Shown piece after piece: positions 15,001 through 15,599 of a DNA stretch of 15,599 bases; the first letter of the stretch is position 1; every line of letters begins with the position of its first letter. The stretch is from Planctomycetota bacterium (GTDB lineage Bacteria > Planctomycetota > UBA8108 > UBA1146): positions 1 to 15,599 of the forward strand of contig JAYZBV010000055.1 of NCBI GenBank assembly GCA_036338595.1. Direction: 5' to 3'. Position numbers: made by a program.

Positions 15001-15599
15001 CGGTGCCAGGGGAACACTGACGAACGCAAGATGGGCTCCTGGGCCCAAAAAAAACGAGACCTCCCCCGGACCTTCCGGGGGAGGCACCTGATTCGGTGCC
15101 CCCGAGTACGCACGCGCGGGACCCGCGTATCGCGCGACGCACCACGAAATGGGGAGCACTGTCAAAGGTCTTCAGGGATTCTCGTCGACCTTGCGTCGGC
15201 GAGGATCGCTGCGCTCGTCTACAACACGACCCTTCCATTGAGGGTCAGCACCTCGTTCTTCAACTGGTACTGGATCGCCTTGTCTCGCTTCTTCTGGTCA
15301 GGATTCTTCTTGACGGGTTTCTTGTTCTTGTTGTTCTTCTTGTTCTTCTTGTTCTTGTTGGCTGCCGCTTTCTTTTTCCCGGCCTTGGCCTTCTTGTTCT
15401 GGCCATCACCCTCGGCGATCTTCTCGATCAGGATGGTCCCGCCGTGACCCTCACCGCCACCGAACTGGATCGCTCCCCCTTCGAGATCGTCGATGATCTC
15501 CTGGATGGCGGCCGGAATCTGATCCAGGTCTCCGTTCCACTCGATGACTTTCTCGTCATGATTCCCATCGTGTTCGATGATGGTGTGGATCTCGATCTC

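Follow-up and report, generated by a model that had tools for sequence, protein, structure and literature searches.

Comparative sequence analysis reveals, on the minus strand close to the end of the window (the whole 15,599-nucleotide stretch of planctomycete DNA analysed here), a structured RNA that is real, conserved throughout its bacterial order and, as far as we searched, undescribed. It is likely a small RNA that acts in trans, driven by sigma54 and controlled by a two-component system. The structure of the RNA, its conservation, the gene order around it, and the promoter and enhancer motifs are established by comparison among the related genomes. The same promoter is retained where the protein genes of the operon are gone, which suggests that the RNA itself may be the main product of the signalling system.

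The element occupies positions 15176-15047 on the minus strand, from the fold to the U-run, and measures ~130-160 nt when a 5′ hairpin is counted. The earlier note had proposed a minus-strand element of ~130 nt, and its sequence, strand and fold are reproduced here: the predicted energy is -65.3 kcal/mol (z -3.97), and none of 200 shuffles folds as well. All of the parts lie on the minus strand. The hairpin H0 (15181..15203) is the likely 5′ end of the RNA. It is followed by the long covarying hairpin H1 (15090..15176), which consists of a lower stem, a bulge on the 5′ side, an upper stem of 12-13 bp, and the apical loop AUACGCGGGUCC (15119..15130). In the terminated form, region 2 is the partner of region 1 (15151..15159), the 5′ strand of the H1 lower stem. 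The terminator hairpin (15059..15085), with its top CCGG-[A/U]NGGU-CCGG at 15078-15066, is followed by a run of 8 U (15047..15054), the predicted 3′ end. In an alternative, antiterminator-like fold, a 2:3 hairpin with 9 bp and a 6-nt loop forms at 15080..15103; this helix joins the 3′ strand of H1 to the 5′ strand of the terminator, and excludes both the lower stem and the terminator base.

The apical loop had been described as near-invariant over 12 nt. An invariant core does exist, but the invariance is limited to the 8 bases GCGGGUCC (15126-15119, minus), which are identical in all 34 copies, while the loop length ranges from 12 to 14 nt. The 8-mer is constant although the copies span 42-70% GC. 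The invariant bases form the 3′ side of the loop, and the 5′ side is variable and often A/U-rich. In addition, the apical-loop GGUCC recurs in the terminator top, and this second occurrence is kept in 31 of the 34 copies, being absent in G001, G003, and G004. The sequence of H0 is not conserved, and a z value of -2 or lower is seen for this hairpin in no more than 9 of 22 members. Where the RNA is free-standing (three copies), an H0-like hairpin lies no further than ~3 nt from the predicted sigma54 start. The RNA probably begins at this extra hairpin, ~30 nt upstream of the boundary given in the earlier note. In genus g7, and in G018, G019, and G006, only ~10-25 nt separate the stop codon from the long hairpin. 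No conserved AUG-started reading frame was found across the element, and a leader peptide was rejected on this ground. The opposite strand was also rejected as the RNA strand, since the minus strand has many more G-U pairs than A-C mismatches.

The covariation claimed for the element was borne out on an independently built alignment of 24 rows, where two-sided changes occur at 15 of 28 pairs and 95.2% of the cells are paired; none of 500 shuffles reaches this value, and the slid controls stay at or below 62%. In a model-fitted alignment of 25 rows, 94.8% of the cells are paired and 23 of the 28 pairs have two-sided changes, related rows inflating such counts. The structure had been drawn from the same alignment that supported it, as the earlier note pointed out. 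Nine members from outside the first alignment were folded alone; they have z values from -2.4 to -5.7 and mostly take the same two-hairpin form, the long hairpins of G028 and G006 being partly different.

How widely is the RNA distributed? The covariance model R1 detects it at E<=3.7e-13 in 30 of the 34 order genomes, and the model R2 adds G001 and G003, so that 32 of 34 genomes and all 13 genera are represented. The two order genomes lacking a match (G016 and G024) both have the PDZ gene, described below, at a contig end. The claims of order-wide conservation and of a structured non-coding RNA with its own terminator hold for the order as a whole. The companion claim, that none of the 25 other genomes of the class matches at E<1e-5, needs a change in its figures, as two matches lie at ~8e-6, but no true member was found. 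One of these two, in G040, was inspected and rejected as a plain terminator without the loop. The phylum sample covers 144 genomes beyond the class (145 beyond the order); two of the 144 match at E<=1e-5, and neither match is a true member: one is a tRNA plus a terminator, and the other a plain terminator. A metagenome scan returned 24 loci, of which 22 belong to the same lineages with the same gene context and 2 are chance matches. A loose pattern run against GTDB gave at least 120 matches; none of those listed has a run of five or more T after the second motif, and they were treated as chance.

The second copy noted earlier on contig C111 is present, with 87.6% identity over 429 nt, and the first 956 nt of C111 are ~88% identical to the end of the window. 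By sequence, C111 appears to come from a related strain that was binned together with the window. The copies on contigs C44 and C149 of G013 resemble two different congeneric genomes, possibly owing to a mixed bin, and those on C77 and C3 of G005 are one locus at overlapping contig ends.

Next, we compared the element with known RNA classes. The statement that it matches no Rfam family stands: Rfam 15 gives no gathering-level match in the window (the best E values are 0.9-6.2, none on the element), and nine divergent loci give no match at E<=1. Literature searches on small RNAs of Planctomycetota yielded nothing of a similar kind, the papers listed for the loop motif were all unrelated, and supplementary motif catalogues could contain the RNA. 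Likenesses to yybP-ykoY, guanidine-II/IV, ANTAR, SRP, and Y RNAs were set aside, as the bases in common lack conservation and no Rfam match exists. T-boxes are defined by an invariant UGGN bulge in the antiterminator together with a specifier loop; here the corresponding U position varies (A, C, U) and sits in the terminator loop, again with no Rfam match, and this class was rejected. Sponges of Csr/Rsm proteins carry multiple GGA loops. The loops of the element carry GGU, and CsrA occurs in 9 of the 34 order genomes while the RNA occurs in 32; this class was likewise rejected.

It is very hard to credit that the element is a divergent 6S-like RNA that binds the RNA polymerase holoenzyme and replaces the 6S RNA not found in the class. 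A single-copy, order-wide RNA would suit that role, RF00013 (6S RNA) is matched in none of the 59 class genomes, and the SRP RNA, RNase P RNA, and tmRNA lie at other G000 loci. However, 6S RNA is a rod of ~180 nt with a central bubble, and the element is not a single long rod of this kind; its conservation is in the apical loop, its long hairpin is only ~70-90 nt, and it has no similarity to RF00013 even at E 10. Other orders likewise lack RF00013 matches, and yet they also lack the element. RF00013 is passed by 4 of 14 controls and by none of the 59 class genomes, and the class may still contain a 6S RNA that has diverged beyond recognition by this model.

From where would the RNA be transcribed? 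In the window, it lies in the 3′ UTR of a host ORF whose 3′ end is at 15219..15599 (minus), encoding a low-complexity protein of no Pfam family. The full-length counterpart on C111 encodes 734 aa with, by eye, a lipoprotein-like signal. The promoter of the window strain is beyond the contig end, and was taken from the C111 copy. The block upstream of the RNA includes a HAMP histidine kinase, a sigma54-dependent response regulator, a CarboxypepD_reg repeat protein, and a HEAT/PDZ gene. In C111, G003, G004, G006, G007, and G027, the order is kinase, sigma54 regulator, CarboxypepD_reg protein, promoter, PDZ gene, and RNA, and in several genera a gene for a low-complexity protein lies between the HEAT/PDZ gene and the RNA. 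In family f1, and in G003, G004, and G006, the conserved segment lies between the stop codon and the operon terminator, and is thus in the 3′ UTR position.

All 16 loci that reach far enough contain a -24/-12 site with 3 mismatches or fewer, which we take by its consensus to be of the sigma54 type. Thirteen of these sites precede the PDZ gene, and the other three (G001, G002, and G005) immediately precede the RNA, without an intervening ORF. At 8 of the 16 sites, T or A replaces the usual C of the -12 element. When the loci are scored with a matrix derived from 12 PDZ-linked sites alone, each free-standing site comes first in its locus, among 8,144, 17,740, and 23,144 positions. Moreover, the PDZ-linked and free-standing loci have in common an enhancer-like palindrome ~110-166 nt upstream of the promoter. 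This palindrome was derived by brief Gibbs sampling that had no shuffled control, and its placement is unstable in 5 of 15 sites (G002, G003, G004, G005, and G006). At L256 (G007), L200 (G009), and L202 (G011), a conserved GC-rich, hairpin-like stretch adjoins the palindrome in the interval from the CarboxypepD_reg gene to the PDZ promoter, possibly as a terminator or a second regulator site. RpoN is present in all five genomes tested. The kinase is found in 34 of 34 order genomes, including G001, G002, and G005, and has weaker matches in 4 of the 25 other class genomes. Close orthologs of the neighbouring regulator carry three labels with a named organism, two of them Planctomycetota and one Bacillota.

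A wider regulon scan ranks the PDZ promoter first in G000 and in the part of G027 covered, although this promoter was in the training set. A second sigma54-like site in G000 (G000:C3:8140-8156) was not accepted, as its enhancer match is inside the upstream coding region; it precedes a 687-aa exported protein that, by eye, resembles a sugar dehydrogenase. Elsewhere in the window, an ORF of 1,423 aa at 5580-9851 (minus) appears by eye to encode a Ser/Thr kinase fused to an ATPase and a repeat region.

The host genes are less constant than the promoter and the RNA. A full-length PDZ ortholog was not found in G001, G002, or G005, where only single-domain matches were obtained. In C111, the HEAT/PDZ gene is internally deleted, and its 94-aa in-frame remnant (G000:C111:2532-2816) matches residues 7-65 and 375-403 of the 403-aa G012 protein. 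The PDZ gene is thus lost or deleted while the promoter and the RNA stay together, which indicates that the protein genes are dispensable. This persistence, together with the promoter placed directly before the element in three genomes with no intervening ORF, makes it quite unlikely that the element is a structured 3′ end whose sole role is to terminate, insulate, or stabilise the mRNA before it. A standard terminator, often close after a stop codon, would suit such a role, as would the position of the element between the sigma54 operon and the flgM promoter, but a terminator has no need of an invariant loop.

Does the element act on flgM, the gene on its other side? The window contains a diverged positional ortholog of flgM (14413..14736, minus; 107 aa), a neighbour of the RNA, which has no Pfam match and reaches no more than 12 bits with a profile made from nine canonical members. 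FlgM is strongly diverged in genera g1, g6, and g7, and the G008 and G010 orthologs exceed the cut-off of PF04316. The element had been placed between a membrane-protein gene and flgM. In a profile search flgM lies downstream in 26 of 33 loci; the upstream gene varies, and four loci have a convergent gene downstream. The remaining seven loci comprise these four, two contigs that end within ~250 nt, and G027, whose flgM ORF is below the threshold. The earlier note had counted two order genomes with another gene than flgM downstream; in fact, a convergent gene takes this place in four (G001, G002, G003, and G005). In these four and in G006, no element occurs within 1.5 kb before flgM; of the 6 order genomes that do not belong to family f1, 5 have no element directly before flgM. 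Between G001 and G002/G005, the element is inverted relative to a nitrilase gene.

In addition, flgM has a promoter of its own. The motif TCAAG-N16-CCGAT at 14841..14866 (minus), presumably of the sigma28 type by its consensus, lies outside the RNA, and flgM therefore need not depend on read-through. Sites of this type precede flgM in 17 of the 17 loci with a called start, among 21 loci examined. The original framing of the element around flgM is consequently misleading, as the RNA also moves without flgM. The separate promoter and the convergent gene in four genomes make a leader of flgM improbable, and by sequence comparison the element is probably not one. At L209 (G017) and L210 (G014), two tandem sigma28-type matches precede flgM, 400-550 nt past the element. 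A terminator-like hairpin and U-run directly follow flgM (14345-14381, minus), and flgM may therefore be transcribed largely alone. Flagellin was not found in 25 order genomes (G000 and 24 others), and 23 of these 25 keep the RNA. G000 keeps FliA (over the TIGR02479 cut-off; G000:C72:29575-30237), the flgM ortholog, and the sigma28-type promoter, with no detected flagellin.

These data also bear on the 2:3 hairpin. If the element were a cis-acting attenuator or riboswitch, the choice between the terminator and this hairpin would set the read-through from the sigma54 operon into flgM-csaA-recN. The loop of the helix stays at 6 nt, with paired sequences that differ between g1/g6 and g2/g4/g5 (the helix is weak in part of g7). 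For most members of g1, g6, g2, g4, and g5, the prediction favours this helix as long as the terminator has yet to expose its 3′ strand. The predominance of flgM downstream would agree with such a switch. Against a pair-shuffle null, the helix stands out (p<0.05) in 11 of 20 representatives; the nine in which it does not include G008, G009, and G004, where flgM follows. Furthermore, the convergent loci leave no same-strand gene to be controlled, flgM has its own promoter wherever its start is called, and the invariant loop is distant from the switching helices. We therefore regard the attenuator as rather unlikely, and the conserved link to a sigma54-type promoter and to a histidine kinase/NtrC-type pair favours a small RNA instead. 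The 2:3 helix cannot be the common function of the RNA; it may tune read-through, as a secondary role, in part of family f1.

Production of the RNA: We propose that the HAMP histidine kinase would phosphorylate the NtrC-type regulator, which would then bind the palindromic enhancer 110-165 nt upstream of the sigma54 promoter. In most genomes, this promoter would transcribe the HEAT/PDZ gene, often with the low-complexity exported protein, and the RNA would form the 3′ end of the message, from which it would presumably be released by processing. In G001, G002, and G005, where the protein genes are gone, the promoter would make the RNA directly, as a primary transcript. The exported neighbours, and the analogy with known systems, suggest a signal of the envelope type. 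A small share of the window is present in 12 of the 18 RNA runs listed. The assembled contigs of four RNA runs contain the flgM ORF in three and the upstream gene in three, with no piece on the element, a pattern that is compatible both with its expression and with the lack of it; one such contig has a loose end ~48 nt past 15215.

Action of the RNA: The small RNA would then work in trans, and a candidate protein would read GCGGGUCC and, in most lineages, the second GGUCC. That the sigma54-driven RNA acts through such a protein, as its ligand or decoy, is plausible, and we hold it as a tentative preference. In favour of a protein are the constancy of the 8-mer over the range of GC contents, the double occurrence of the motif in 31 of 34 copies, and the lack of a conserved mRNA match in the screen described below; against it are the three copies without the second GGUCC and the failure to find a known partner protein. 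The usual chaperones are missing in the order, and the partner would thus point to another post-transcriptional pathway: Hfq (PF17209) is over the cut-off in none of the 34 order genomes, RapZ (PF03668) is found in none of them and in 7 of 14 controls, and the 9 genomes with CsrA are the same 9 that have flagellin.

Alternatively, the same sigma54-driven RNA may act by Hfq-independent base pairing, with the exposed GCGGGUCC as the seed for one or more mRNAs or for another RNA. It would then form a non-coding arm of the response, in the manner of CpxQ, or in that of CJnc230 with flgM as its target; we regard this as possible, with a lower probability. All of the promoter and gene-order evidence applies equally to pairing. 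The invariant 3′ side of the loop, beside a variable 5′ side, is as expected for a presented seed, and an invariant loop is equally typical of a seed with multiple targets. By eye, the sequence just past the flgM ribosome-binding site can pair with 3-7 bases of the loop, and pairing has a precedent in the RpoN-dependent CJnc230, which is reported to repress flgM (PMC11187230). However, the flgM pairing here is short, wobble-rich, and variable. Seed matches at homologous places number only eight between G000 and 1.91 of the ~2.9 Mb of G027, and all are within coding regions. Around the start codons of 723 ortholog pairs, a single pair ranks within the top 5% at matching positions, where 15 shuffled seeds yield 0-4 such pairs, in a screen of G000 against two thirds of G027 with crude start calls. 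The ribosome-binding site of a Clp ATPase gene was rejected as a target, since it is not kept in genera g2, g4, g5, and g6. No perfect complement of the loop 8-mer occurs in the tRNAs, tmRNA, SRP RNA, or RNase P RNA of G000. The lack of a conserved mRNA target in this incomplete screen tilts the balance slightly from pairing toward a protein partner.

A combination of these activities, in which the RNA would titrate an RNA-binding protein through the tandem GGUCC loops and would also carry, in part of family f1, a switchable terminator acting in cis, seems unlikely. Were it true, a sigma54 response would be coupled to the anti-sigma28 gene flgM even in cells without flagella, and the protein would belong to no known small-RNA pathway, in a lineage without Hfq and RapZ and mostly without CsrA.

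The locus provides a natural test of the interconversion between 3′ UTR RNAs and free-standing small-RNA genes, as a single order contains the same promoter, enhancer, and RNA both alongside the host protein genes and in their absence. Since a likely regulator, promoter, start site, and functional loop can be named, the proposal is testable in vitro, the organisms being apparently uncultured.

How does this RNA compare with known systems? It belongs to none of GlmY, CpxQ, CJnc230/FlmE, or CrcZ. In pseudomonads, CrcZ and CrcY, with CbrA/CbrB, are two-component- and RpoN-driven RNAs that antagonise RNA-binding proteins. CrcZ is ~400 nt long (Rfam length 398), its partner Hfq was not found here, and the score against its Rfam model is no better than chance (E 0.9, 12.9 of 95 bits). 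CJnc230/FlmE of Campylobacter jejuni is RpoN-dependent, processed from an mRNA 3′ region, and linked to flgM (PMC11187230). FlmE is part of the flagellar cascade and pairs with flgM mRNA; in contrast, the planctomycete RNA has no firm pairing with flgM and persists in most genomes without flagellin. CpxQ is the highly conserved 3′ UTR of cpxP, a two-component-induced gene for an exported protein, and serves as a non-coding arm of the response (PMC9438474). It is ~60 nt long, depends on Hfq and RNase E, and pairs with mRNAs. The likeness lies in the 3′ UTR position within a two-component operon with an exported protein, whereas the planctomycete RNA is heavily structured, has a sigma54-type promoter, occurs in genomes where no Hfq was found, and is a free-standing gene in three genomes.

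The GlmY system of Enterobacteriaceae, with QseE/QseF (GlrK/GlrR), shares with the planctomycete locus a sigma54 promoter and a linked histidine kinase/NtrC-type pair, here in the form of a motif and a gene order. GlmY has a sigma54 promoter, upstream activating sequences, and the adjacent QseE/QseF genes with a third envelope gene, and its function resides in the central stem-loop (PMC6075780, PMC4152352). The planctomycete RNA has no sequence or Rfam similarity to GlmY or GlmZ, its order lacks detectable RapZ in all 34 genomes, and no paralogous GlmZ-like partner was found. Unlike GlmY, it forms in most genomes the 3′ end of an operon that encodes proteins.
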